Shown piece by piece: positions 269 through 12,045 of a stretch of DNA of 58,185 nucleotides. Both the position numbers and the translations under genes were made by a program. How positions within the stretch are numbered: the stretch's first letter is position 1; each line of letters opens with the position of its first letter. The notes under the pieces were generated by a model. It did no database searches. It worked only from the letters and a program-made list of their open reading frames with translations, and was not told where the DNA came from. The stretch lies in NCBI GenBank assembly GCA_043809585.1, contig JBDROZ010000076.1, positions 1 through 58,185 of the forward strand, written 5' to 3'. The stretch comes from Candidatus Eiseniibacteriota bacterium. Lineage in GTDB: Bacteria > Orphanbacterota > Orphanbacteria > Orphanbacterales > Orphanbacteraceae.

Positions 269-825
269 GGGGGTCTCTCTCCCTCGGCAGTCCTTGCTGA
301 TTACTCGCAACCACGGGCGGGTGGCGCCGGCGGGGGCCCGCGAGGAGCGCAGCCACCAAGCGCCAGATCCCGAGTCCCATGGCATCATCGAGGACATGAC
401 GTGCGGTGCACATCCGGCGGGCGAAGATGACCCTGGCGCGACTGGCGAGCACTGCAGCGGGCGGCCGGCGACAGGATCTGCCCGTGCTGCAGCCATGTGC
501 TCGGGGAAGATCCCCGGGGGCCCCTTGACCCGACCGTCCTGGTCCCGAGCATGGACTTCCGTCCGCCATTTTTATCTTGACACCTTAGACCCCACGTCAT
601 AAGTGTGTGGTAACGCCGTGAAAAATGGCGTGTTGCATGGCTCGGTATCAGGACGGGCTTGGCGGCGGAGGAGAGGCATCGCATGCTACGGCTCCGCTCA
701 CGAAACAGGAACGCGGGGACGGGACGGGGAGGCGAATCTCCGCCCTTCTCATCATCGACGCGCTCCCGTTCCGGAGGGCGGGGCCTTTCTATTACAAAGA
801 ACGACCCGGAGCCGAGGGGACGCCT

Positions 826-1908
826 ATGAACACCGTTTGTGTTACCAATCAAAAGGGGGGTTGCGGGAAGACCACCACCGCGATCAACCTCTCCTGGTCC
901 CTGACCCAACTGAACAAGACCGTCCTGTTGATCGACCTCGATCCTCAGGGGCACGCTTCGCTCGGCCTCGGCTTCGACACGGATCTTCTCGACCGGACGA
1001 TCCGGGAGTGTCTCGTCCGCCCTTCCATGCCGATCGGCGAGGTCTTCCTCCCCTTCTCCGACCGCCTCGACGTCGTGCCTGCGAACATTTCCCTCGCCTC
1101 TCTCGAACAGGAGCTCGCCGGTGAGCCTGAGCGGGAGTCCCGGCTCCGCCATGCCCTCGCCACCACCTCGCGAGAGTACGACTACGTCCTCATCGATTGC
1201 CCGCCGAGCCTCGGCTTCCTGACCATCAACGCCCTCGTCGCCGCCGACGAGGTGATCATTCCGATCGAAGCCTCCAGCTTCTCCCTCCACGGCCTCGAAC
1301 GGCTCCTCGACACGGTGGAGCTCGTGGAACGGAACACGGGGCGCCGGATCATGACCCGCGCCCTCGCCACGAATCACGACGCCCGGACCCTCTACGCCCG
1401 ACGCTTCCTCGAGGAGCTGGAGGGACGTTTCCGGGAGCAGCTCTTCGAAACGGTGATCCATCACTCGGTGGTCGTGAAGGACGGCGCGGCCCGGGGCCTC
1501 CCGGTCGGCCGCATCCACCACCACTCGAAGGTGGACAACGACTTCACGGCCCTCGCCACCGAGATCGTCGAGAGCGCCCCCGTGGTCGAAGTCGAGAATC
1601 TCGGCGAGTGGCAGGAGAAGCTCTTCGGTCCCTCCGTCAAAGGGGAAGAAGTGGTCTTCCGGCTCGAGGCGCCCGGCGCGAAGCGCGTCCAGGTCGCGGG
1701 CCGGTTCAACGATTGGAATCCCGCCCGGGGCGAGATGAGCCAAGACCCGATCAGCGGCGCTTGGTCGATCCGGATCCGCATCCCGAGGGGGACGTATCAG
1801 TACCGGTACGTCGTCGACGGCGAGTGGGTCGAAGACCCGGCGAACGAACGTCACGAATTCAGCGAAACCGGCTTCCGGAATTCCCTGGTCCACATCGGGG
1901 AGGGTTAG
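826..1908 (+). CDS. ParA/Soj-family ATPase fused to a C-terminal glycogen-binding (CBM48/AMPK-beta-type) domain
   Basis: Deviant Walker A NQKGGCGKTTT, IDLDPQG, LIDCPPSLG; C-terminal FRLEAPGAKRVQVAGRFNDWNP...GTYQYRYVVDGEWVEDPAN...NSLV; RBS gagggg before ATG 826. Confidence 0.9.
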   Translation: MNTVCVTNQKGGCGKTTTAINLSWSLTQLNKTVLLIDLDPQGHASLGLGFDTDLLDRTIRECLVRPSMPIGEVFLPFSDRLDVVPANISLASLEQELAGEPERESRLRHALATTSREYDYVLIDCPPSLGFLTINALVAADEVIIPIEASSFSLHGLERLLDTVELVERNTGRRIMTRALATNHDARTLYARRFLEELEGRFREQLFETVIHHSVVVKDGAARGLPVGRIHHHSKVDNDFTALATEIVESAPVVEVENLGEWQEKLFGPSVKGEEVVFRLEAPGAKRVQVAGRFNDWNPARGEMSQDPISGAWSIRIRIPRGTYQYRYVVDGEWVEDPANERHEFSETGFRNSLVHIGEG

Positions 1909-1910
1909 CC

Positions 1911-2654
1911 GTGAACCCGCCTCCGCCCCGATCACCCGAGCCGAGAAGCCGGCGGATGGAGGATCTCTCGAGGGTCTACTTCTCCTCCGCTTCGTTCGAA
2001 CCGGTCGCCGCCAGGCCGCCGGAGAAGCGGCCGGCCCCGGTCGGGACAAGTGGCCCCGCGGCGTTCGTCACCGTCGCCAACGCCGCCGGGGGCCGCGGGG
2101 AGTCGTTCCTGCACGAACTGCGGCTGCTCCTTTCGGGCCGGGGCCATTCGTCGTTCCAGGTCCGGGGTGTGGGCGGGGGCTATCGGGTCGACGGCGAACC
2201 GGGCGCGCCCCTCTCGCCGGCCGCCCTTCTCGATCGGATTCGGGGAGGTTCGGGACCTTCGATCCTCTTCCTCATGCTCGCCGAGGAGGAGGGGGCGGAC
2301 GATCCCGCCCTTCTCAGGAGCGGCGACGCCTCGCTCCTCCTGGCCGGCCCGGAGATCCAGGATCTCCGCCGGGCCTACGCCCGCCTCCGCGGGGCGATTC
2401 GGGGGGGAGGGGGGACGGTGCCCGCCATCGTCCCCGTCGACGGATCCGACGCGTGGACCCGGATCGCGCCCCTCCGCCTCGCCGAGGCGGCGACACGGTT
2501 TCTCGGCATTCGCGTCCCCGTCTGGGGGGGGGGCGATGCGGCCGAAGCGGCCCGCCTCGTCGCCGGGCGCCTCAAGGGCGTGGGGGAGCGGAAGGAACAT
2601 GGATCGGAGCCCCTCGCCCGCCGCCTGATGGCGGTGATCGGAGGCGCCCCGTGA
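1911..2654 (+). CDS. Degenerate FleN/MinD-like protein (P-loop eroded)
   Basis: GTG 2 nt after the ParA stop (alternative ATG at 1956); FVTVANAAGGRGES at the Walker A position; LLLAGPEIQDLRRAYARL and RLAEAATRFLG resemble FleN/FlhG segments; GTGA overlap with the next gene. Confidence 0.6.
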   Translation: MNPPPPRSPEPRSRRMEDLSRVYFSSASFEPVAARPPEKRPAPVGTSGPAAFVTVANAAGGRGESFLHELRLLLSGRGHSSFQVRGVGGGYRVDGEPGAPLSPAALLDRIRGGSGPSILFLMLAEEEGADDPALLRSGDASLLLAGPEIQDLRRAYARLRGAIRGGGGTVPAIVPVDGSDAWTRIAPLRLAEAATRFLGIRVPVWGGGDAAEAARLVAGRLKGVGERKEHGSEPLARRLMAVIGGAP

Positions 2655-3241
2655 AGAGGCCCCCGAGCCGGGAGTCGACCTTCATCGTCTCCCGCCGGAT
2701 CGAAAGGGACGACCTTCCCGATTGGGTCGCCGATCACCCGTCGATCGTGGGAGACGGCTTCGAGGTCCTCGCATCGTGGGTGCCCCTCCCGGACGGCGAT
2801 GAGATCCCCCTGCTCGGCGCCTGCGGCGGCGGGGGGCTCTGCGTGGTCGACGTGCTCGGCAACGAATGGGAGACCTTCTACCGTCTCGGCCGGGTGGTCG
2901 CCTTTCTCCGAAGCCGCGCGGCGTGGCTCCGCCGCGCCTTTCCGGAGAGAGAGCTCGACGCGGATCGGGCGCTCAGAATCGTGATGCTTGGCGACGACTT
3001 CCCGCCCCCTTTCATCGACGCCATGGCGGGTCTCGCCGTCTACGAACTGGTCCTTCTCCGGATCCGCGATCTGGAGAGTACCGACGGGAGGCGCCTCCTC
3101 CTCGTGGAGAGGGAGGAGAGCCGGATGAGAGCCCCCGAAGAAGCGCCCCGCCGGGACGCGTTCACGGAGGAGGAAGAGGAGTTCTTCCGCCGTCTCGAGA
3201 CGGAGCGGGAGAATCTCCGGTCCCGCAAGGAGGCAGGATGA
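2651..3241 (+). CDS. Hypothetical protein, probable inactive NucS/PD-(D/E)XK-like fold with an acidic C-terminal helix
   Basis: ERDDLPDWVADHPSIVGDGFEVL...GDEIPLLG..GGLCVVDV follows the NucS C-terminal pattern without its IDLL/ELK catalytic residues; coupled on both sides (GTGA, ATGA). Confidence 0.55.
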   Translation: MKRPPSRESTFIVSRRIERDDLPDWVADHPSIVGDGFEVLASWVPLPDGDEIPLLGACGGGGLCVVDVLGNEWETFYRLGRVVAFLRSRAAWLRRAFPERELDADRALRIVMLGDDFPPPFIDAMAGLAVYELVLLRIRDLESTDGRRLLLVEREESRMRAPEEAPRRDAFTEEEEEFFRRLETERENLRSRKEAG

Positions 3242-3492
3242 TCTGGCTCTGGCTGATCCTGCTCGCCGCGGCATACGTGGTCGTCGCGATCGTGGTCGGC
3301 AAGGTGTGCGCGATCAACTCCCGTTGGGAGAAGACCGTGGATCACATCGACCCGAACGGGGAGGATCTGGAGCGGGGGAAGCGCAAGCGTCTCCCGCGTC
3401 GTTTCTCCGACGGTACGACACGGCTGCTCGCCGTAGGCGGAGTGGAAACGGTCCCCTACGCCGGGGGACCCGTGGAGGGCGTAGGGGATTGA
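3238..3492 (+). CDS. Small single-pass membrane protein A (84 aa), paralog of 6195-6380
   Basis: ATGA overlap with the upstream gene, RBS aaggagg; N-terminal TM helix followed by CAINSRWEKTVDHIDPNGED. Confidence 0.75.
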   Translation: MIWLWLILLAAAYVVVAIVVGKVCAINSRWEKTVDHIDPNGEDLERGKRKRLPRRFSDGTTRLLAVGGVETVPYAGGPVEGVGD

Positions 3493-3662: not shown

Positions 3663-5801
3663 TTGGCCGTCTTTCTCAGGCGACACCCCCTCTTCATCAT
3701 CGGCGCGGCGATCACCCTTGTCGCCCTAGGGATCCGCGCCCACCGATTGGACTGGGGACTGCCCGACATCTACGAGGAAGGGACGTCGGTCGAGAAGGCG
3801 TGGGGGTTCTGGTCGTGGGACGAGCCGGGACTCGATCTCGACCCACACTTCTTCAACTACCCCTCCCTCCACTTCTACATCCAGTTCGGAGTTCAGGCCC
3901 TTCTCCGCGCGGGGGGGACGATCACCGGAGCCTTCCCGGACGAAGCCGCCTTCCGCGCCGCCTACCTCGCCCGGCCGGGGGTCTTCTATCTGGCGGGCCG
4001 GTGGTCCACGGCTCTCTTCGGCGCGGCGACGGTTCTGCTGGTTTTCCTCGTGGGCCTACGCGCCGGCGGGCTTCGGACGGCGGCGCCGGCGGCCCTATTC
4101 CGGGCGTTTCACGGGCTGCACGTCCAGAAGTCGCGCTTCGTGGAAGTGGACGTCACGATGACCTTCTTCGTCGTCCTCTCCACCTGGCTCCTGGTCCGAT
4201 ACGTCAGCGAGGGGAAACGGCGGGACCTCCTCGCCGCCGGTCTTTGCGCGGGTCTCGCCGCGTCGGTGAAGTACCCGGCCGCCCTCTTTCTGCTCCAGCT
4301 CCCGTGGGCGGAGAAGATCCGGCAGGGGGCCCCGTTCCGGCCGGGCCGGGTCCTCGCCGCCGTCCTCCTCGGGGGGGTGGCGTTTGCCGCCGCCAGCCCG
4401 TACGTGATTCTCGACTTTGGCGGCTTCCTCCGCGATTTCGGCGCCGAGTCCCTCCACATGAGGGAGGGGCATTTCGGAGGAGCCGGAGAGGGGGTCCTCG
4501 GGGCGGCGCGGCTCTTCGCCGGCGGATTCGGATGGCCCCTCTTCCTCGCGGCCCTTGCCGGCGTCCTGGCGGCGGCGGTCCGTCCCCGGGGCGTGGAGAA
4601 GCTCCTCTGGCCAATGCCGGTTCTCCTCTTCGTCCTGCTCGCCGCGAGCCGGATGCAGGCTCCCCACTATCCGCTCCCCGCGGTCCCCTCCCTCGCCCTC
4701 CTCGCCGCGGTCCTTCTCGCCCGTGTCATCGGGGGAGGATCCCGGGCCCGCGCGGGGCTCCTCGCGGGGGCGACCACGGTACTTCTCGTTCCGCCCGCCC
4801 TCGCCGACTTCGCCGCAGTCCGGCGCGCGGCCGAAGGAGACACCCGGGCCCGGGCGCGGGTGTGGATCGAGGAACGGGTCCCCTCCGGGTCCCTCGTTCT
4901 TCTCGAACCTCACGGGCCCCAACTTCTCGCTTCGAGCGACTTCGATCGCTACCGGGAGTCGATGGAGTTCGCAGCGATCCGGGAGGCCCTTCTCGGGGCG
5001 ATCGGAGACCGCCCGTGGTATCGTTCGGCGGTACTCCCCTCGTTCTCCATCGACGTGGACCGGTCGGAACGGTTCTACCGACTCCCGCCGTACCAGTGGT
5101 TCGAGTACCTGGTCCTCTCCGACGACATCGGCGAGCGGTATCGCTCGGACCCGGACCGTTTCCCGGCGCAGAACGAGTTCTACCGGGCCGCGAGGGAACG
5201 GTACGAGCCGCTGGTCCGCTTCGAGACGGGCAGGGGGAGCGGGCCCGGACTGGAAATCATGCGCCACCGCCGGGGTCTTCCCCCTCTTCCGGTCGCGCTG
5301 GATCCGGAGGGGGCAATGGACGGCGATTTCGTCCGCTTCATCCGCTCCATCGCCGGCCTCTACCGGGACCGGGGCCTCCCGGATGCCGCGCCGAGGATTT
5401 ATCTCGCCCTGCTCGCGCTCGGGGGAGAGGACGGGGAGACCCTCTTCCAGCTCGGCATGGACAGGGCCCTTGCCGGCGACCCGAGCGCCGCGATCGAGCT
5501 CCTCCAGAGGAGCCTGCGGGCCGATCCCGGGCTCCGGCAGGCACGCATGAACCTCGGCATTCTCTACTGCCAGACGGGACGCGCGGGCGATGGGATCGAG
5601 ATCTTCCAGGAGATGCTCGCCGAGCGGGAGGATGCGGACCTTCACGGCAATCTCGGCTCGGCCCTCCTGCAGTCCGGCCGAACGGAAGAAGCGATCCCCC
5701 ATTTCCGGCGGTTTCTCGTGCTCGCGCCGAATCATCCCCGGGCGGGGGACATCGTGAGGCTCCTCGACTCCATTCCGGGGGAGCGCTCCGTGGAACCCTG
5801 A
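3663..5801 (+). CDS. ArnT/PMT-family (GT-C fold) membrane glycosyltransferase with C-terminal TPR repeats
   Basis: Multi-TM protein; WGLPDIYEE, HFFNYPSL, AGLAASVKYPA motifs; C-terminal TPRs (ARMNLGILY, LHGNLGSALL, FLVLAPNHP); RBS aaggag before TTG. Confidence 0.85.
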   Translation: MAVFLRRHPLFIIGAAITLVALGIRAHRLDWGLPDIYEEGTSVEKAWGFWSWDEPGLDLDPHFFNYPSLHFYIQFGVQALLRAGGTITGAFPDEAAFRAAYLARPGVFYLAGRWSTALFGAATVLLVFLVGLRAGGLRTAAPAALFRAFHGLHVQKSRFVEVDVTMTFFVVLSTWLLVRYVSEGKRRDLLAAGLCAGLAASVKYPAALFLLQLPWAEKIRQGAPFRPGRVLAAVLLGGVAFAAASPYVILDFGGFLRDFGAESLHMREGHFGGAGEGVLGAARLFAGGFGWPLFLAALAGVLAAAVRPRGVEKLLWPMPVLLFVLLAASRMQAPHYPLPAVPSLALLAAVLLARVIGGGSRARAGLLAGATTVLLVPPALADFAAVRRAAEGDTRARARVWIEERVPSGSLVLLEPHGPQLLASSDFDRYRESMEFAAIREALLGAIGDRPWYRSAVLPSFSIDVDRSERFYRLPPYQWFEYLVLSDDIGERYRSDPDRFPAQNEFYRAARERYEPLVRFETGRGSGPGLEIMRHRRGLPPLPVALDPEGAMDGDFVRFIRSIAGLYRDRGLPDAAPRIYLALLALGGEDGETLFQLGMDRALAGDPSAAIELLQRSLRADPGLRQARMNLGILYCQTGRAGDGIEIFQEMLAEREDADLHGNLGSALLQSGRTEEAIPHFRRFLVLAPNHPRAGDIVRLLDSIPGERSVEP

Positions 5802-6118
5802 TTCCGGCTCCTCGAAGCGAAACGGCTTTCTTTTCGTTCCCGTTTTTGGTATGATGAAAAACATCCGGGGCTCGAAACCGGAGGCCGACACCTTAACCCC
5901 ACCGGAATTCTATCTCCTGCTTCTGGATACTTTGTATCCATCGTTGGCTACGAAGTCACCGTTTATGCCCTCCATTCGACGTCCACTCAGGGGGGTGAGA
6001 GGCAAGGGATCGGAACCATCTCGCCTGCGCTTTCCTAATCGCATATTTGCAAGGATTTTACATAGACGAGTGCCACCGAGGTCCGTCCTGATGAACTATT
6101 TGATATGGGGGCGGGTCG

Positions 6119-6134
6119 TGGTATTGAAATTGCA
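6119..6134 (+). promoter_or_regulatory. Sigma54 (-24/-12) promoter
   Basis: TGGTAT-TGAAA-TTGCA with exact GG-N10-GC spacing, ~60 nt before ATG 6195; IHF-like aactatttgata at ~6094-6105. Confidence 0.7.
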
Positions 6135-6194
6135 AGACTAACCTGCGGGTAGTCTTCCACTCTCCGGACGAGAAAGGAGTCTCGCGTATGTAGC

Positions 6195-6380
6195 ATGAAA
6201 CTAGCCATCATTTTAGGGGTGCTTGGCGTCTACATCATCGTGGCGTTCGTGATCGCGAGATTCTGCGCCGTGAACGCCGGATGGGAGAAGATCGCCGACC
6301 TTCTTCCACCGAACGGAGAAGATGGCTTCGCCGAGCCGGAGCCAAAGAACCTGGGAGGTTCCGGCGATGCGGGGCAGTAG
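6195..6380 (+). CDS. Small single-pass membrane protein B (61 aa), paralog of 3238-3492
   Basis: RBS aaaggag; TM helix followed by CAVNAGWEKIADLLPPNGED; 17/43 ungapped identities to protein A. Confidence 0.75.
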   Translation: MKLAIILGVLGVYIIVAFVIARFCAVNAGWEKIADLLPPNGEDGFAEPEPKNLGGSGDAGQ

Positions 6381-6569
6381 ATCAGGAGGAGGAGAGAACA
6401 AGAGTATTGCTATCGCTTGAGAGATCCGCGGGATCTCTGAATCGGCCCTCAAACCAGGGGGTAGCCGATGAGAGGGTCCGGTCCGAGCCTACGGGTGGTG
6501 GCCGGGCCCTTTCCCTTTCCGGGTCCGGTCGAGAAGGAGAGGGAAGATTCGGAGTGACACGGCAAAGCC

Positions 6570-6597
6570 TTGACATTCCTAGTGTTTTGGCTATAAT
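6570..6597 (+). promoter_or_regulatory. Consensus sigma70 promoter
   Basis: TTGACA-16 nt-TATAAT upstream of ATG 6655. Confidence 0.85.
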
Positions 6598-6654
6598 GAA
6601 GTTACATGAGTGGGTCTTGGGTATCCACTCAAAGGGGAGAGGAAAGGAGACATT

Positions 6655-6909
6655 ATGAATCAGCGCATCATCACTCTCTTCTTGCTCGTCGCTCTCGCAT
6701 CCACCTGCCCGATCCTTCCGGCGTTTGGGGAGGACGGGACGCCTGATCCCCGGGAGGCCACGCCCGAGGAAGTGGATCCGGACGGGCTCGAGGGGATCCG
6801 GACAGGTCCGAGGACGATCGACGTCGAAGCGGTCCCCGTGGACGGGCTGAGCGGCTCGAACTTCGTGAAGATCCTCCTGCGGTACGCTCGGGTGTTCGGA
6901 ATCATCTAA
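6655..6909 (+). CDS. Small secreted peptide/protein (84 aa), candidate signalling propeptide
   Basis: Strong RBS aaaggaga; Sec-type signal peptide MNQRIITLFLLVALASTCPILPAFG; acidic middle with DPDGLEG/VDGLSG; amphipathic basic C-terminus. Confidence 0.75.
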   Translation: MNQRIITLFLLVALASTCPILPAFGEDGTPDPREATPEEVDPDGLEGIRTGPRTIDVEAVPVDGLSGSNFVKILLRYARVFGII

Positions 6910-6927
6910 CGAAGGGCGCGATTCGAG

Positions 6928-6949
6928 CGGCCCCCCGCGCGGGGGGCCG
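6928..6949 (+). other. GC-rich intercistronic hairpin between the peptide gene and the activator
   Basis: cggccccccgc/gcggggggccg inverted repeat, no U-tract. Confidence 0.5.
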
Positions 6950-7007
6950 GCGAGACGTGAGAAGGTCCACGGAATCGGCGGCGCACCGAGGCGCCGCAAG
7001 GAGCGTC

Positions 7008-9977
7008 ATGGGGCCCGGCGATCATCTGGAGCGGGTCAAGCGGGCGATCGAGCAGGCGGAGGCGGACGGCGATTCCCGCAAGGAAGCCGGCCTTCTTGAA
7101 AGCCTCGGCGATCTCTATCTCACTTCGGACGCTTACGGTCAGGCTCTCGGCCAGTTCGATCGTCTGGTCCGGTCACCCCATTGGGCTTCGTTCACGCCCG
7201 CCGACAAGGCCCGAATCCTGTACAAGACCGCCCGAACCCACCTCGGACTGGGCGAGTACGATCAGGCCCTTCGGCTCACCTCCAAGGCGGAGCTTCTTCT
7301 CACGGACGAGGACGACCCTCTTCTTCTCGGCCGGATCTACTCCCTCTGCGGGCAGGTCCACCGGCGCATCGGCAATCAATCCGACGCCCTCGCCTATTCC
7401 CTCCGGGCGTTCGACGTGCTGCGTCACACCGACGCGAACCGGGAGATCGCCTTCGTGCAGCTGACCTGCGGGTCGATCTTCCTCCGTCAGGGCAGTTTCT
7501 CCGACGCGGTTCGCTATTTTCATGACTCCCTCGCCACGTACCGGCGCATCGACGACGAGGAAGGAATCGCGAAGGCCTACAATAACCTCGGCGTCGCCTA
7601 CAAGAACCTCTGCCAGTGGGAGAGCGCGACGGGGGCGCTCAAGAAGGCGATGGAGATCGACCGTCGCTTCGGCAACTACGCCGGCGTCGCCCTGCGGATG
7701 CTCAACCTCGGCCTGATCCAGTTCCAGCGGGGCGAGTGGGACTCCTCGCACCGCCGCTTCGAGAAGAGCCTCCAGATGTTCCGGGGCGTGAAGGACATGG
7801 TGGGGGTCACTCTCTGCAGTCTCGCACTTGCGCGCCTCGCCCGGCACCGCCGGCGCTGGGAGGAGGCGCGGCGGCTCGCGACGGACGCACTCAGGGACAG
7901 CATGGCCCGCGGCAACCGGCGGGAGATCGCGGCTTCCTACGAGGAGATCGGCGCCTGGTACTTTGCCCGGGGGCAGACGAGAACCGCCCGGGCTTTCTTC
8001 GAGAAGTCCCTCACCGTGGCGGAGAAGATCTCCGAAAAGAACGACCACATCGCCGAGATCCACCGGCGTCTCTCCGAAGTGGCTTCCGCCGAAGGAAGGC
8101 CGGAAGCGGGGATCGCCTACGCCAAGCACGGTCTACGCACGGCGGCGGCGATCAAAGATAAGCGCCTCGTCGGCCTCGGACTCCGGGCCCTCGCCGCGGC
8201 GACCCGTCTCGCCGGCAGGCCCCGGCTTGCCGCCTTCTACGCCCGGCGCAGCGTCCGGGTCTTCGGAGAGTTCGGCATGCCCTTCGATCTCGGGCGGTCT
8301 CTCCTGGAATCGGCAGTCATCGCCCGGGAGAACGACGACATCGGCGCCGCCCGGGCGGAACTGACCCGGGCGGAGGAGATCTTCCGGGGGCTCGGAGCCG
8401 AGGGGTACGCGGTAAGGGTGCTGATCGAGTTCGCGGAGATGAAGGTGCGCACCGACCGCCTCGAGGACGGGCTGGTTCTGCTTCACAAGGCGCAGCGCAC
8501 CGTGGACCGCGACTTTCCGAGCGGCGATCTTGAGGACATCCAGCGCCTGCAGACGTCGATCGAGAACCGGTTTGTCGAGGTCTCGACTTCGCCGTCGAAC
8601 CGGTATCTCGCGTTCCAGGAATCGTCCGCGGCCTCGAGAGAGGAGACGCTCGACCGGATCCTCGCCGAGCTCGAGGCGGGACGGGCGTTCTTCTTCCGCC
8701 GTAACGCCGTCGGGGGATGGGAGATCGTCGACGGCCGCGGCGTCGACCCGGAGGAGGCGCGGCATCTTCTCCAGGGCGCCCGATCGGATGGAAGCGCGAC
8801 GGGGCCGATCCGGCCCATGGTCTCTCTCGGCGACGTCGGCGGCGGGACGTCCCTCTCCTTACTGGTGGCGCCCGCCGAGGGGGGCGAGGCGGGCGTGTAC
8901 GTGGACCGCCCGGTTTCGTGCGGGCGCCGGCCATTCGGGCGGCGGGATCTGAACTACCTTGTCGGCGTCGCGCGGGAACTCGTGGTGGGCGGCGTGAAGA
9001 TGGACGAGGCGATCGTCGGGGCGCCCCACGGCGCCGCTTTCGACGGGGTGGTGACGCAGAGCGAGAAGATGCAGGATATTCTCGCCATGCTCCGGAAACT
9101 GGAGGGCGTCAACGCCTCGATCCTGATCCAGGGGGAGACGGGGACCGGGAAGGGGCTTCTCGCGTACGAGATCTCCAAGGGGGATTCGGAGCCCTTCGTG
9201 ACGATCAACTGCGCCGATCTGACCGAGACGATCTTGGAGTCGGAGCTCTTCGGCCATGTAAAGAACGCCTTCACCGGCGCGGGCCGGGGAAAGAAGGGGC
9301 TCTTCGAGGTGGCCGACGGAGGGACGGTCTTCATCGACGAGATCGACAAAACCAGCCGGCACTTCCAGGAAAAGCTGCTCCGCGTCGTGGACCGGCGGGA
9401 ATTCAAGCCCGTCGGATCCGTCGAGGTCTCACGGGTCGACTGCCGGATCATCTGCGCGTCGAACAGGGACCTGGCCGAGGAAGTGGAGAGGAGGCGCTTC
9501 CTGAAAGACCTCTACTACCGCCTGAAGGTGATCTCCATCACCCTGCCCCCCCTCCGGGAGCGGTCGGTGGACATTCCTCCCCTGGTCGATCACTTCGTCG
9601 CCAAGTACACGCGGTCCATGGGCAAGGCCGGCGTGAGCTTCGAGCCGGCGGTGGTGGAACTCTTCAGCCGCTATCACTGGCCCGGGAACATCCGGGATCT
9701 CCAGAACGAAGTGGAGCGGGCGGTCGCCCTGGCCTCCCCCGGGGATGTCGTCACGATCGACTCCCTCTCGGACGAACTCGTCCGGTTCTCGAAGCTCGGC
9801 GTCACTACGCCGGTAACGGGCGAAAAAAGCCTCGCGAACATGGTCGGGGAGCTCGAGGAGCGGGTCATCCGAGAAGCGCTCCGCCGCTGCCACGGTAACA
9901 AATCCCAGGTCGCCCGTCTCCTCGGCCTCACCCGAAAGGGCCTCCGCAACAAGATCCTCCGCCACGGCCTCGAGTAG
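7008..9977 (+). CDS. Sigma54-dependent enhancer-binding protein with a long N-terminal TPR array, degenerate GAF-like linker, AAA+ domain and Fis-type HTH
   Basis: Repeated TPRs (e.g. IAKAYNNLGVAYKNL); GETGTGKG, ESELFGHVKNAFTGA, VFIDEID, WPGNIRDLQN, GNKSQVARLLGL; RBS aaggag before ATG 7008. Confidence 0.92.
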   Translation: MGPGDHLERVKRAIEQAEADGDSRKEAGLLESLGDLYLTSDAYGQALGQFDRLVRSPHWASFTPADKARILYKTARTHLGLGEYDQALRLTSKAELLLTDEDDPLLLGRIYSLCGQVHRRIGNQSDALAYSLRAFDVLRHTDANREIAFVQLTCGSIFLRQGSFSDAVRYFHDSLATYRRIDDEEGIAKAYNNLGVAYKNLCQWESATGALKKAMEIDRRFGNYAGVALRMLNLGLIQFQRGEWDSSHRRFEKSLQMFRGVKDMVGVTLCSLALARLARHRRRWEEARRLATDALRDSMARGNRREIAASYEEIGAWYFARGQTRTARAFFEKSLTVAEKISEKNDHIAEIHRRLSEVASAEGRPEAGIAYAKHGLRTAAAIKDKRLVGLGLRALAAATRLAGRPRLAAFYARRSVRVFGEFGMPFDLGRSLLESAVIARENDDIGAARAELTRAEEIFRGLGAEGYAVRVLIEFAEMKVRTDRLEDGLVLLHKAQRTVDRDFPSGDLEDIQRLQTSIENRFVEVSTSPSNRYLAFQESSAASREETLDRILAELEAGRAFFFRRNAVGGWEIVDGRGVDPEEARHLLQGARSDGSATGPIRPMVSLGDVGGGTSLSLLVAPAEGGEAGVYVDRPVSCGRRPFGRRDLNYLVGVARELVVGGVKMDEAIVGAPHGAAFDGVVTQSEKMQDILAMLRKLEGVNASILIQGETGTGKGLLAYEISKGDSEPFVTINCADLTETILESELFGHVKNAFTGAGRGKKGLFEVADGGTVFIDEIDKTSRHFQEKLLRVVDRREFKPVGSVEVSRVDCRIICASNRDLAEEVERRRFLKDLYYRLKVISITLPPLRERSVDIPPLVDHFVAKYTRSMGKAGVSFEPAVVELFSRYHWPGNIRDLQNEVERAVALASPGDVVTIDSLSDELVRFSKLGVTTPVTGEKSLANMVGELEERVIREALRRCHGNKSQVARLLGLTRKGLRNKILRHGLE

Positions 9978-10171
9978 CCGAAGCCATTCGTCCCGGGACC
10001 TTCCCGTCTGCGTGTTCTCCGTGTCTCATGCGGTGATTCTGTCTCCGCGGTCCCGGATCTGATTCGGAGCTACGAAGAGCGCGAAGGGCTCCTTCCCGGT
10101 CGGGACAAATCGACGCCGCCCGGCGGGGGGGGCGTGGTCTATACTCGGTCCGTCGTCGACGGAGGTGATCG

Positions 10172-10603
10172 ATGGGAGAACGGGGGGGCGAGAGCATCCG
10201 CTGGCTCCGGCACGACGCGGACCTGCTTCTCGAGGCGCGGGCGGCGACGGAGGAGCGGCTCTTTGCCCTGGCGGCGGAGGCGGTGGTCGCCGCCATGACC
10301 GACCGTCCCCCCACGGAAGGGGGCGAGCGCAGGTCCGTTCGGCTGGAGGCGGAGGATCCCGAGGGGCTTTTCGTGGCGTGGCTGAACGAGATCGTCTACC
10401 TCGTCACCGCCGGGGACTTCCTCCCCGCCCGGTTCCCCTCATTGACCGTGGAGGAGGGCTCGCTCTCCGCGGAGATTGAAGGGGGCGCGCCCGGCCCGAA
10501 CGGTCCCTCCATCGTTCGGGAGGTGAAGGCGGCGACGTATCATCGGCTCCGCCTGTCGAAGGGGAAAGAGGGCTGGACGGCCCGGGTGCTTCTCGACGTG
10601 TGA
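10172..10603 (+). CDS. Archease
   Basis: HDADL at the N-terminus, WLNEIVY, EVKAATYH, C-terminal VLLDV; adjacent to rtcB. Confidence 0.88.
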   Translation: MGERGGESIRWLRHDADLLLEARAATEERLFALAAEAVVAAMTDRPPTEGGERRSVRLEAEDPEGLFVAWLNEIVYLVTAGDFLPARFPSLTVEEGSLSAEIEGGAPGPNGPSIVREVKAATYHRLRLSKGKEGWTARVLLDV

Positions 10604-10620
10604 CGGCGGGGGGGGGATTC

Positions 10621-12045
10621 ATGGCGAAGCTGGTTCCCTTCGGAGACTACCGATGGCGGATCGAACCCCACGGGGGAATGCGTGTGCCCGGCGTCGTCTA
10701 CGCCGACCGGGGCGCTCTCGAGAAGATCCACCGAGACCGGAGTCTCGAGCAGGTGGCGAACGTCGCCCACCTCCCCGGAATCGTCGGCCGCTCCCTTGCC
10801 ATGCCGGACATCCACTGGGGCTACGGCTTCCCGATCGGCGGCGTCGCCGCCATGGACCTCGAAGAGGGGGTCGTCTCGCCGGGGGGCGTCGGGTACGACA
10901 TCAACTGCGGCGTCCGCCTCGCGGTGAGCGACCTCGACCGGAAAGACGTGGCTCCCCGGGCGGAGGAGATCGCGGCCGCCCTCTTCGCCCGCGTGCCCTG
11001 CGGCGTCGGCGTTGGGGGAGACCTGAAACTGGACGATAGGGAGATGGCCGATGTCCTCCGGGAAGGCGCCCGCTGGGCGGTGAAGCGAGGGGCGGGGACG
11101 AGAGATGATCTTCTCCGTACCGAGGAAGGGGGAGGTCTCGTCTCGGCGGACCCTGACGCCGTGAGCCGGCGCGCCTTCGACCGGGGGCGGACTCAGGTGG
11201 GAACCCTCGGCTCGGGGAACCACTTTCTCGAAGTCGCCTGGGTGGAGACGGTGTTCGACGGCGCCGCCGCGGAAGCGTTCGGCCTCCGGGAAGGGGCGGT
11301 GACGCTGATGATCCACTGCGGCTCCCGCGGACTCGGCCATCAGGTGGCGACCGACTTCCTGCAGATCATGCAGAAGCCGGGCCGGCCGGACGCCGTCCGG
11401 ATCCCGGACCGGCAGCTCGCCTGCGTGCCGATCCGCTCCTCCGGGGGTCAGCGATACCTCGCCGCCATGGCGGCGTCGGCGAACTTCGCATGGGCGAACC
11501 GCCAGTACCTGCTCCACCTCTCCCGGGATGTCATGGAGAAGCTTTTCCCGGGCGCCAATCTCCGCATGGTCTACGACGTCTCCCACAACATCGCCAAGAT
11601 CGAGACCCACAAGGTGAAGGGGAAGGAGCGATCCCTCTGCGTCCACCGGAAGGGGGCGACCCGGGCCTTTCCGGCGCTGCACCCGGACCTGCCCGAGGTG
11701 TACCGCGGGGTGGGGCAGCCCGTGCTCATCCCGGGCGACATGCGGTCGGGATCGTACGTCCTCGTCGGCACCGAGATGGCGATGGAGGAGACCTTCGGCA
11801 GCACCTGCCACGGCGCGGGGCGCGTGAAGAGCCGCTCCGACGCGAAGCGTCAAATCCGCCTGAGCGACGTGGAGAAGAAGATGGCCCTCGCCGGCGTCGC
11901 TCTCCGGGCCCGATCCCGATCGAACCTCGTCGAGGAGGCGCCGGAGGCCTACAAGGATATCGACGAGGTGGTGAACGTCGTGCACGGCGCCGGGATCTCC
12001 CGGAAGGTCGCCCGGCTCCGGCCGATCGCGGTGATCAAGGGATGA
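10621..12045 (+). CDS. rtcB: RtcB RNA-splicing/repair ligase
   Basis: MPDIHWGYGFPIGGV, GYDINCGVR, GTLGSGNHFLE, HCGSRG, SHNIAK, HRKGATRA, STCHGAGR, EEAPEAYKD. Confidence 0.96.
   Translation: MAKLVPFGDYRWRIEPHGGMRVPGVVYADRGALEKIHRDRSLEQVANVAHLPGIVGRSLAMPDIHWGYGFPIGGVAAMDLEEGVVSPGGVGYDINCGVRLAVSDLDRKDVAPRAEEIAAALFARVPCGVGVGGDLKLDDREMADVLREGARWAVKRGAGTRDDLLRTEEGGGLVSADPDAVSRRAFDRGRTQVGTLGSGNHFLEVAWVETVFDGAAAEAFGLREGAVTLMIHCGSRGLGHQVATDFLQIMQKPGRPDAVRIPDRQLACVPIRSSGGQRYLAAMAASANFAWANRQYLLHLSRDVMEKLFPGANLRMVYDVSHNIAKIETHKVKGKERSLCVHRKGATRAFPALHPDLPEVYRGVGQPVLIPGDMRSGSYVLVGTEMAMEETFGSTCHGAGRVKSRSDAKRQIRLSDVEKKMALAGVALRARSRSNLVEEAPEAYKDIDEVVNVVHGAGISRKVARLRPIAVIKG

Follow-up and report, generated by a model that had tools for sequence, protein, structure and literature searches.

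A conserved pair of a small, predicted exported protein and a TPR-type sigma54 activator in Candidatus Eisenbacteria as a candidate sensing module

Peptide signals that are read by cytoplasmic receptors built of tetratricopeptide repeats (TPR) are described mainly for the Firmicutes, their phages and plasmids, according to the sections of the literature drawn on here (PMC10075063, PMC9765709). The detection tool RRNPP_detector, in the parts of its description used here, looks for a propeptide of 10-100 amino acids (aa) by default, a receptor of about 250-500 aa with C-terminal TPRs and the direct neighbourhood of the two genes, and its authors discarded the clusters with N-terminal TPRs (PMC10075063). 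The present work concerns a two-gene locus in a stretch of DNA of 58,185 nucleotides (nt), hereafter the window, that is the contig JBDROZ010000076.1 (C76) of the assembly GCA_043809585.1, a metagenome-assembled genome of Candidatus Eisenbacteria of 4.24 Mb and 97% completeness. The first gene encodes a protein of 84 aa that is predicted to be exported, and the second, 98 nt downstream, a sigma54 activator of 989 aa with a long TPR region. An earlier note, made from the sequence of the window, had read the two genes as a signalling module analogous to the RRNPP systems, with an output through sigma54, in a diderm lineage. The diderm nature of the lineage is borne out by nine Omp85 matches in the genome; LptD (PF04453) was not found there by a model that detects only 2/14 control genomes and has, therefore, little weight.

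In common with the RRNPP(A) systems (Rap-Phr, NprR-NprX, PlcR-PapR, PrgX, Rgg-SHP, AimR-AimP), the locus has a small gene for a putative Sec-type propeptide directly beside the gene of a cytoplasmic TPR protein, several paralogous pairs in one genome, and a TPR superhelix that aligns with Rap, RapF and NprR over almost the full length. Unlike them, the receptor has 989 aa, with N-terminal TPRs followed by a GAF-like domain, an AAA+ ATPase and HTH_8; the output would pass through sigma54 rather than through HTH repression or activation or a phosphatase; the host belongs to a diderm candidate phylum, the conserved motif stands at the start of the mature part of the small protein, and there is no common sequence family. 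Measured against the RRNPP_detector settings, as given in the same parts of that paper, the 84 aa fall within the propeptide range and the genes are direct neighbours, with the 98-nt gap here and adjacency in 39/39 Eisenbacteria loci, whereas 989 aa exceed the receptor range of 250-500 aa and the TPRs, at residues 6-498, are N-terminal to the effector domains (PMC10075063). No match of the activator to an RRNPP receptor family was obtained in Pfam or NCBIfam. Because of the length, the TPR position and the absence of a sequence-family match, the module is not a member of the RRNPP group as defined in the portion of the paper used (PMC10075063), though by analogy it may work like one. Thus, from the analogy drawn in the earlier note, the gene architecture and the fold class hold, and the receptor size, the domain order and the output depart from it. 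The elements of the module are as follows.

6570-6597, + strand: consensus sigma70 promoter TTGACA-16-TATAAT, 12/12 consensus positions
6655-6909, + strand: 84-aa small protein, predicted exported (open reading frame, conservation, AlphaFold2 (AF2) model)
6655-6729, + strand: predicted signal peptide, residues 1-25 (basic N-terminus, hydrophobic helix, cleavage-type site)
6766-6795, + strand: conserved EEVDPDGLEG, residues 38-47 (alignment of the small-protein family)
6850-6894, + strand: C-terminal amphipathic helix, residues 66-80 (AF2 model; hydrophobic moment 0.5)
6928-6949, + strand: 9-bp GC hairpin without a U tract (folding z-score -2.0; no terminator called by the scan)
7008-9977, + strand: 989-aa sigma54 activator (Pfam, AF2 model, orthologues)
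7023-8501, + strand: TPR superhelix, residues 6-498 (Pfam TPR_12 five times; 26 helices in the AF2 model)
8637-8975, + strand: GAF-like domain, residues 544-656 (AF2 alpha/beta domain; GAF scores of paralogues)
9051-9539, + strand: AAA+ sigma54-interaction domain (Pfam Sigma54_activat)
9849-9959, + strand: HTH_8 (Pfam, E 2.9e-12)

The host genome contains one rpoN and 25 sigma54 activators, and all 25 were scanned for a small open reading frame (ORF) on the same strand that ends within 250 nt upstream and encodes a putative signal peptide; the rule for the latter asked for a basic n-region, a hydrophobic core of 12 residues and a first stretch of 20 residues free of acidic ones. Such an ORF precedes 5/5 activators of the TPR type, located on the contigs C76, C3, C32, C36 and C110, versus 0/20 of the other activators, and the paralogous small proteins have 74-114 aa. 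In the relatives, the adjacency was found in 8/8 orthologous loci and in 8/8 paralogue loci with upstream sequence; the small ORF is present in 19/19 further loci (13 recognized by the rule, six by eye, one cut by the contig end) and in one more Eisenbacteria chromosome, so that it accompanies the TPR activator in 39/39 Eisenbacteria loci examined, orthologues and paralogues together. All the small proteins share the signal peptide, an acidic motif of Pro, Gly and Asp (D-P-D or D-G-D) and a C-terminal hydrophobic or amphipathic helix, and they fall into the motif classes A ([ED][ED]VDPDGLEG), B (GDGDIPE), C (GGGDPDNPVP), D (DTDPDDFP) and E (other GDPD-x-P forms, a catch-all defined by three residues). 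The best non-self hit of the receptor, taken from its N-terminal 90 aa, belongs to the same motif class in 33/35 cases, the other four of the 39 having no hit. The gene pair is, thus, real, conserved, lineage-specific and multiplied, with about five copies per Eisenbacteria genome. Full-length relatives of the activator outside the phylum, with about 26-28% identity, occur in Blastocatellia, Pyrinomonadaceae and Krumholzibacteria; by the same rule, the small ORF was found in 0/64 Pyrinomonadaceae (Acidobacteria) loci with a full upstream flank. In the loci examined, the pairing thus characterizes the Eisenbacteria clade rather than TPR activators in general. The check formulated in the earlier note, that homologous activators should have adjacent small ORFs with co-varying motifs, came out in its favour within the phylum (39/39 loci, 33/35 class matches) and against it in the distant TPR activators of Acidobacteria (0/64).

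The small gene itself is preceded by the sole perfect sigma70 site within 5700-10700, where the shuffled sequences give a mean of 0.5, and the genome of 4.24 Mb contains five perfect TTGACA-N16-18-TATAAT sites versus 0.05 expected from the base composition. The other four lie at C25:23008, C41:9699, C63:4301 and C69:58660. The same promoter precedes the small gene in 7/8 orthologous loci, and the ribosome-binding site AAGGAG (6644-6649) stands before the ATG at 6655; the consensus promoter, with 12/12 positions, and the strong ribosome-binding site had both been correctly recognized in the earlier note. The small gene and the activator lie behind sigma70-type promoters in the classes A, B and C, which fits a constitutive pair of sensor and signal rather than a sigma54 output.

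The signal peptide and the amphipathic tail, as read before, were confirmed at the level of prediction, with a basic N-terminus, a hydrophobic stretch modelled by AF2 as a helix (residues 2-20) and the cleavage-type site A-F-G for the former, and the helix 66-80 for the latter. A putative Sec signal peptide agrees with our own rule, with the AF2 helix and with the A-x-G/A site. By the well-established positive-inside rule, the basic N-terminus, together with the acidic residues behind the hydrophobic helix, speaks for an exported mature part. The mature protein has 12 acidic versus six basic residues, with a disordered acidic stretch between the cleavage-type site and the C-terminal helix in the AF2 model. 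Within the family, whose members share 19-77% identity and regardless of this the same build, V40, D41, P42 and G44 are invariant in 20/20 members, with the motif [ED][ED]VDP[DT]G-L-E-G. Thus, from the repeated DGL(E/S)G motif noticed earlier, the first copy proved to be the invariant core, while the second, VPVDGLSG, is present only in the window protein and its closest relative.

A search of 5.8 billion clusters gave 20 relatives of the class A small protein, and all the named ones are hypothetical proteins of Eisenbacteria; the protein is single-copy in 9/10 genomes of the phylum, the exception being a genome of 82% completeness. The profile search in 1.84 billion representatives, built on the class A alignment only, returned 20 small proteins and two FG-GAP repeat proteins, and no usable match for the small protein was obtained in the ESM Atlas. 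The EEVDPDGLEG region aligns with the repeated DVDGDGLDD calcium-binding loops of the FG-GAP repeat proteins P0151 and P0152, and the DPD motifs might, judging from this likeness of sequence, bind a metal ion. Upstream of the class D pair on C110, at about 15.0-16.3 kb, a 406-aa ORF rich in WGDYDNDGD / WGDFDNDLD repeats, FG-GAP/VCBS-like by eye, adjoins the small gene.

The spacer between the small gene and the activator has 98 nt here and 42-110 nt in the orthologues. The GC hairpin reported before is present, with 9 bp at 6928-6949, and is conserved neither in sequence nor in strength, since the spacers of the eight orthologous loci fold at -7 to -55 kcal/mol without a common sequence; the idea that it raises the ratio of the peptide to the receptor mRNA, accordingly, receives no support from the conservation across these loci.

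The activator starts most probably at the ATG 7008, which is preceded by AAGGAG, the upstream GTG 6957 being a less likely start. Pfam assigns to it five TPR_12, Sigma54_activat (PF00158, E 2.5e-56), AAA_lid_14 and HTH_8, and no receiver domain; the earlier description of an activator of about 990 aa without a receiver is, therefore, accurate. In the AF2 model of the residues 1-690 (pLDDT 86.6), the 26 helices of the residues 6-498, about 13 TPR pairs, are followed by a linker helix and then by an alpha/beta domain that covers 544-656. The residues 500-690 gave no Pfam match at E up to 1 and no meaningful sequence match in the Protein Data Bank (PDB), but the region aligned to 544-656 in the paralogue of C32 scores as GAF (PF01590, 33.4 bits versus the cut-off of 22.4), and so does, also above the cut-off, that of the database relative P0017. 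On the model and these scores, the architecture is TPR-GAF-like-AAA+-HTH; the TPRs of the input region, about 500 aa as read before, are at 6-498, while the GAF-like domain, with which the input region is more than TPRs, had been missed. The translation contains the Walker motif GETGTGKG and, as the loop of the GAFTGA type, NAFTGA, with F755, T756, G757 and A758 invariant in 19 relatives, and by these sequence marks it is a bona fide sigma54 activator. It has no membrane segment and must act on the RNA polymerase, which places it in the cytoplasm. The orthologues have 983-995 aa and the paralogues 847-1033 aa. R160 and R305 of the TPR region are invariant across the paralogues, and R179, K199, N233, R276, R353, R354 and R393 are nearly so; these conserved basic and Asn residues might read the acidic motif.

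No NCBIfam equivalog comes near its cut-off for the activator, the best rows being NifA, AtoC and PrdR, all far below the cut-off and with the ATPase only. The GPMC system regulator (NF038230, 113 bits versus the cut-off of 1200), DagR (NF047795, 94.5 bits versus 1400) and RtcR (271 bits versus 650) were considered and rejected, the ATPase part alone being aligned in each case. With the bacterial enhancer-binding proteins that have N-terminal sensors (NifA and FhlA with GAF; XylR/DmpR with V4R; NorR; PspF-PspA), the activator shares the AAA+ domain, the lid, the Fis-type HTH and a sensory region in place of the receiver, and with NifA and FhlA also the GAF-like domain next to the ATPase. Unlike in them, the GAF-like domain is preceded by a TPR superhelix of about 500 residues, and the upstream gene encodes a dedicated small protein that is predicted to be exported. 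By a word search, TPR is absent from the main text of a survey of such activators published in 2011 (PMC3162934). A literature search, without supplements, found no paper on TPR-type sigma54 activators with partner peptides or on Eisenbacteria regulators.

The fold of the TPR region was compared by Foldseek and then by VIA-align on the best 1000 of the Foldseek rows. The top ranks of Foldseek were occupied by the TPR domains of LGN/Pins, TSK and OGT, with no RRNPP receptor among the best 50 rows, whereas VIA-align of the best 1000 did give Rap and NprR, and because of this different outcome no claim is made from the rank. The VIA-align scores were Z 32.1 for APC5, 31.1 for APPBP2 with degron, 30.4 for phi3T Rap with pheromone (350/365 residues aligned), 29.9 for LGN, 29.1 for RapF with peptide, 28.1 for RapJ, 28.1 for the MalT domain III (1hz4; root-mean-square deviation 3.7 over 360/366 residues), and 26.3 and 25.4 for NprR. 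Among the best solved matches are, thus, TPRs that bind peptides or degrons. The TPR region aligns over nearly the whole of Rap and NprR at Z 25-30 and, according to the model, is a long superhelix, of a class with extended peptides or small ligands as binding partners; the scores being effectively tied, they do not establish kinship with any one family. LGN/Pins and APPBP2, which are among the closest solved folds and whose entry titles give the binding of extended peptides in a concave channel, are eukaryotic scaffold and degron receptors, and the likeness to them is at the level of the fold only, with 10-20% identity. The MalT domain III and the STAND regulators with TPR arms are similar by the fold match and by PF17874 in two paralogues, and differ in that the window activator has no STAND NTPase module and a PF17874 score (34.3 bits) under the cut-off of 45. 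MalT senses a sugar and, to our knowledge, has no partner peptide gene. The AimR-like profile on one paralogue reached 19.2 bits over 45 residues, also under its cut-off of 26.7.

A candidate for the output, which the earlier note had overlooked, lies upstream of the small gene, in an AT-richer island (GC 51-60% in 5800-6700 versus 65-75% on either side), and consists of the following elements.

6119-6134, + strand: sigma54-type promoter TGGTATTGAAATTGCA (-24 GG, -12 GC), from conservation
5946-5960, + strand: candidate upstream activator site, imperfect palindrome GGCTAC-N3-GTCACC, about 173 nt 5' of the sigma54 promoter (DNA alignment)
6148-6154, + strand: GGTAGTC leader element, 43-47 nt 5' of the start codon, with the offset kept in 5/7 family loci
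6195-6380, + strand: 61-aa single-pass membrane protein (ORF; conserved in 8/8 orthologous loci)

The promoter-like site is 76 nt before the 61-aa ORF and 0.9 kb upstream of the activator. TGGTAY-N5/6-TGC occurs 72-76 nt before the start codon of the membrane protein in 6/7 family loci, and the second family, represented by one genome, has TGGCACGCGTAGTGCT 65 nt ahead of this codon. There are nine sigma54-like sites in the window versus 7.9 expected, and 11 strict sites genome-wide, about the chance level, so that in the absence of enrichment it is only the conservation that argues for a sigma54 promoter at 6119-6134. The GGnTA-N5/6-TnACC block aligns in six of eight orthologous loci (5946-5960 here), and both this block and the GGTAGTC element may be considered as candidate activator sites. 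The 61-aa protein has one transmembrane helix followed by the ARFCAVNAGWE motif, with 35-67% identity among the orthologues; no family was found for it in Pfam or NCBIfam, and the ESM Atlas gave only leads under 0.9. Its gene is, from the conserved upstream sequence, the likely sigma54-dependent output, and the paired activator may be the one that uses the promoter. The sigma54 output proposed in the earlier note is, thus, plausible, given one rpoN, the intact F-T-G-A loop and the conserved promoter, with the link between the activator and this promoter as its conjectural part. The terminator scan found no terminator-like site between 6380 and 6570; transcripts from 6119 could, therefore, reach the small gene and the activator.

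The sole paralogue of the 61-aa protein in the genome is encoded at 3238-3492 (+), with 84 aa and 52% identity in an alignment of 31 residues (E 4e-8). The start codon ATG of this gene shares nucleotides with the stop of the ORF 2453-3241, and the gene lies just 5' of the PMT/TPR glycosyltransferase gene 3663-5801, which is itself upstream of the module. There may be a functional link between these small membrane proteins and the glycosyltransferase. The gene order of glycosyltransferase, membrane protein, small exported protein and activator is kept across six genera, and the synteny with the glycosyltransferase, a feature of class A only, was found in 9/10 loci, the exception being the locus of the second family.

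From these data, the small protein or a fragment bearing its motif is tentatively considered as the cognate signal read by the TPR domain, with the output at the sigma54 promoter of the membrane protein, a reading that we prefer while rating its chance slightly short of even. Each Eisenbacteria genome would then possess about five such cognate sensing units of two genes. Transcription of the small gene would start at a sigma70 promoter that looks to be among the strongest of the genome, the pre-protein would be exported by the Sec pathway, and the mature part would consist of the acidic, proline-containing motif of the DPD type, the disordered linker and the C-terminal cationic amphipathic helix. 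The second gene would provide the cytoplasmic TPR-GAF-like-AAA+-HTH activator, whose TPR superhelix would read the small protein, or the class-specific fragment with the DPD motif, of its own pair. For the way of the signal back to the cytoplasm, peptide re-import is the leading guess; the two OppA/DppA-type binding proteins (SBP_bac_5) of the genome are only permissive for the import. The gene C81:16390-17553, for one of these two proteins, and that of a non-TPR sigma54 activator, C81:13345-13845, have the same orientation and are separated by about 2.5 kb. The switched activator would remodel the sigma54 polymerase at 6119-6134 and, if the regulation is positive, turn on the 61-aa membrane protein, with a possible read-through into the operon of the module itself, since no terminator precedes 6570. 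Of this reading, the anatomy of the locus, the pairing, the expansion into paralogues, the agreement of the motif classes with the receptor clades and the conserved promoters are observed; the export, the relation of ligand and receptor, the way back to the cytoplasm, the sign of the regulation and the target promoter are inferred. The complex prediction for the activator residues 1-680 (19-row alignment) and the small protein residues 26-84 (20-row alignment) gave 0.00 in two runs without controls, which weighs neither way.

Several points weigh against the small protein as the signal. The Rap and NprR scores are tied with those of the unrelated APC5, APPBP2, LGN and MalT domain III, and the last, a small-molecule sensor, matches as well as Rap; moreover, the MalT-like TPR family PF17874 is above the cut-off in the paralogues of C3 and C32, and the true site of the ligand could be the GAF-like domain, which separates the TPRs from the ATPase. 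The conserved motif is near the N-terminus of the mature part, and many RRNPP pheromones derive from the C-terminus. The class-to-clade match is expected from the vertical descent of the duplicated pairs with or without binding, and the class A motif hardly varies though the class A receptors are 47-60% identical, which is unlike the diversification of pherotypes. The signal-peptide rule was self-devised after the positives had been seen. Finally, the other four pairs of the genome have no sigma54-type promoter within 4 kb (at least 9/11 matches), apart from one site inside a cysteinyl-tRNA synthetase gene, so that the output is identified in no more than a single class, for which conservation is the sole evidence.

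To a different explanation we attach a minor though serious share of the probability, namely that the small protein is cargo or output, an envelope-active or membrane-binding peptide co-expressed with its regulator, and that the activator responds to another stimulus, such as a small molecule perceived through the GAF-like or the MalT-like TPR region. In its variants, the acidic pro-region and the cationic amphipathic helix would be arranged as in the precursors of antimicrobial peptides, or the protein would be a substrate of the neighbouring PMT-type glycosyltransferase, whose synteny in 9/10 loci speaks for the latter as its limitation to class A speaks against it. The cationic amphipathic helix at the end of the mature part (hydrophobic moment 0.5), the resemblance of the motif region to the Ca-binding DxDxDG loops of FG-GAP repeats, the GAF-like domain and the MalT-like TPR signal would all suit such a role, as would the sigma54 promoter upstream of the whole block, with no terminator found before the small gene. 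However, the small genes have sigma70-type promoters of their own and are, therefore, not obviously sigma54 outputs, and the one-to-one pairing in 39/39 loci, with the motif classes tracking the receptor clades, exceeds the usual linkage between a regulator and its target.

Slightly less probable again, in our estimation, is the sensing before export, in which the TPR domain would hold the unexported precursor, similarly to the TPR chaperones of type III secretion whose free form co-activates transcription, or in the style of PspA on PspF. The activator would then report the export or insertion of this one protein, and no re-import would be needed. The adjacency and the probable co-transcription of the genes, with gaps of 42-110 nt and no terminator, favour a complex that forms where the proteins are made. 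The predicted signal peptide is typical of the Sec substrates, and the activator is a cytoplasmic protein. TPR chaperones bind segments of the amphipathic-helix kind, and the small protein has such a helix at its C-terminus. The sigma54 regulons often concern the cell exterior, in the part of the survey used here (PMC3162934), which also suits this explanation. Five orthogonal copies per genome with class-specific motifs are, however, hard to justify for a general export sensor, and the consensus sigma70 promoter suggests amounts of the small protein far above the need of a stoichiometric partner. That the 84-aa ORF stands open by mere chance, the DNA being GC-rich, and resembles a propeptide by accident is hardly credible, because, although high-GC DNA is rich in spurious ORFs and several overlap the region on both strands, this reading is already contradicted by the conservation of the protein in 9/10 genomes of the phylum, by the invariant V-D-P-x-G core and the build conserved despite 19-77% identity, by the consensus promoter and the ribosome-binding site before the ORF, and by the same build upstream of every paralogous activator.

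In the surroundings of the module, the archease and RtcB genes (10172-12045, +) are directly 3' of the activator, the archease likewise in 4/10 orthologous loci checked, and a sigma54-like site is absent from 9977-10172, between the activator and the archease. The gene at 625-1908 (+) encodes an unusual fusion, in which a ParA/MinD-type ATPase (AAA_31, E 1e-53) carries a glycogen-binding module (AMPK1_CBM, CBM_48) at the C-terminus. The Rfam scan of 5700-7100 gave nothing but a chance miRNA row (E 0.28). In a groundwater metatranscriptome (X2, depth about 2), one 157-nt contig matches 6239-6316 and 6399-6475 exactly, with the possibility of DNA carry-over and with neither transcript ends nor strand given by the contigs.

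The logic of the two genes is the same as that of the described peptide systems, and here it occurs in a diderm uncultured phylum, with a sigma54 ATPase as the proposed receptor and about five class-specific pairs per genome; a detector that expects a receptor of 250-500 aa and TPRs in its C-terminal part would, owing to its very design, overlook systems of this kind. In its strongest form, which seems unlikely to hold in full, the proposal would mean that Eisenbacteria independently evolved a cell-cell signalling analogous to RRNPP, with about five orthogonal channels per cell, in each of which a Sec-exported propeptide would release its class-specific acidic DPD motif, to be re-imported across two membranes and read by the TPR superhelix of a dedicated sigma54 activator. 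If true, this would be the first family of encoded peptide pheromones with cytoplasmic TPR receptors in a diderm phylum, and the first wired to sigma54. If the small proteins are ligands, such peptide sensing extends beyond the monoderms and the sigma54 activators gain a new class of input; if they are not, there is still a strictly conserved and as yet unexplained partnership of an exported small protein and an enhancer-binding protein in this phylum.

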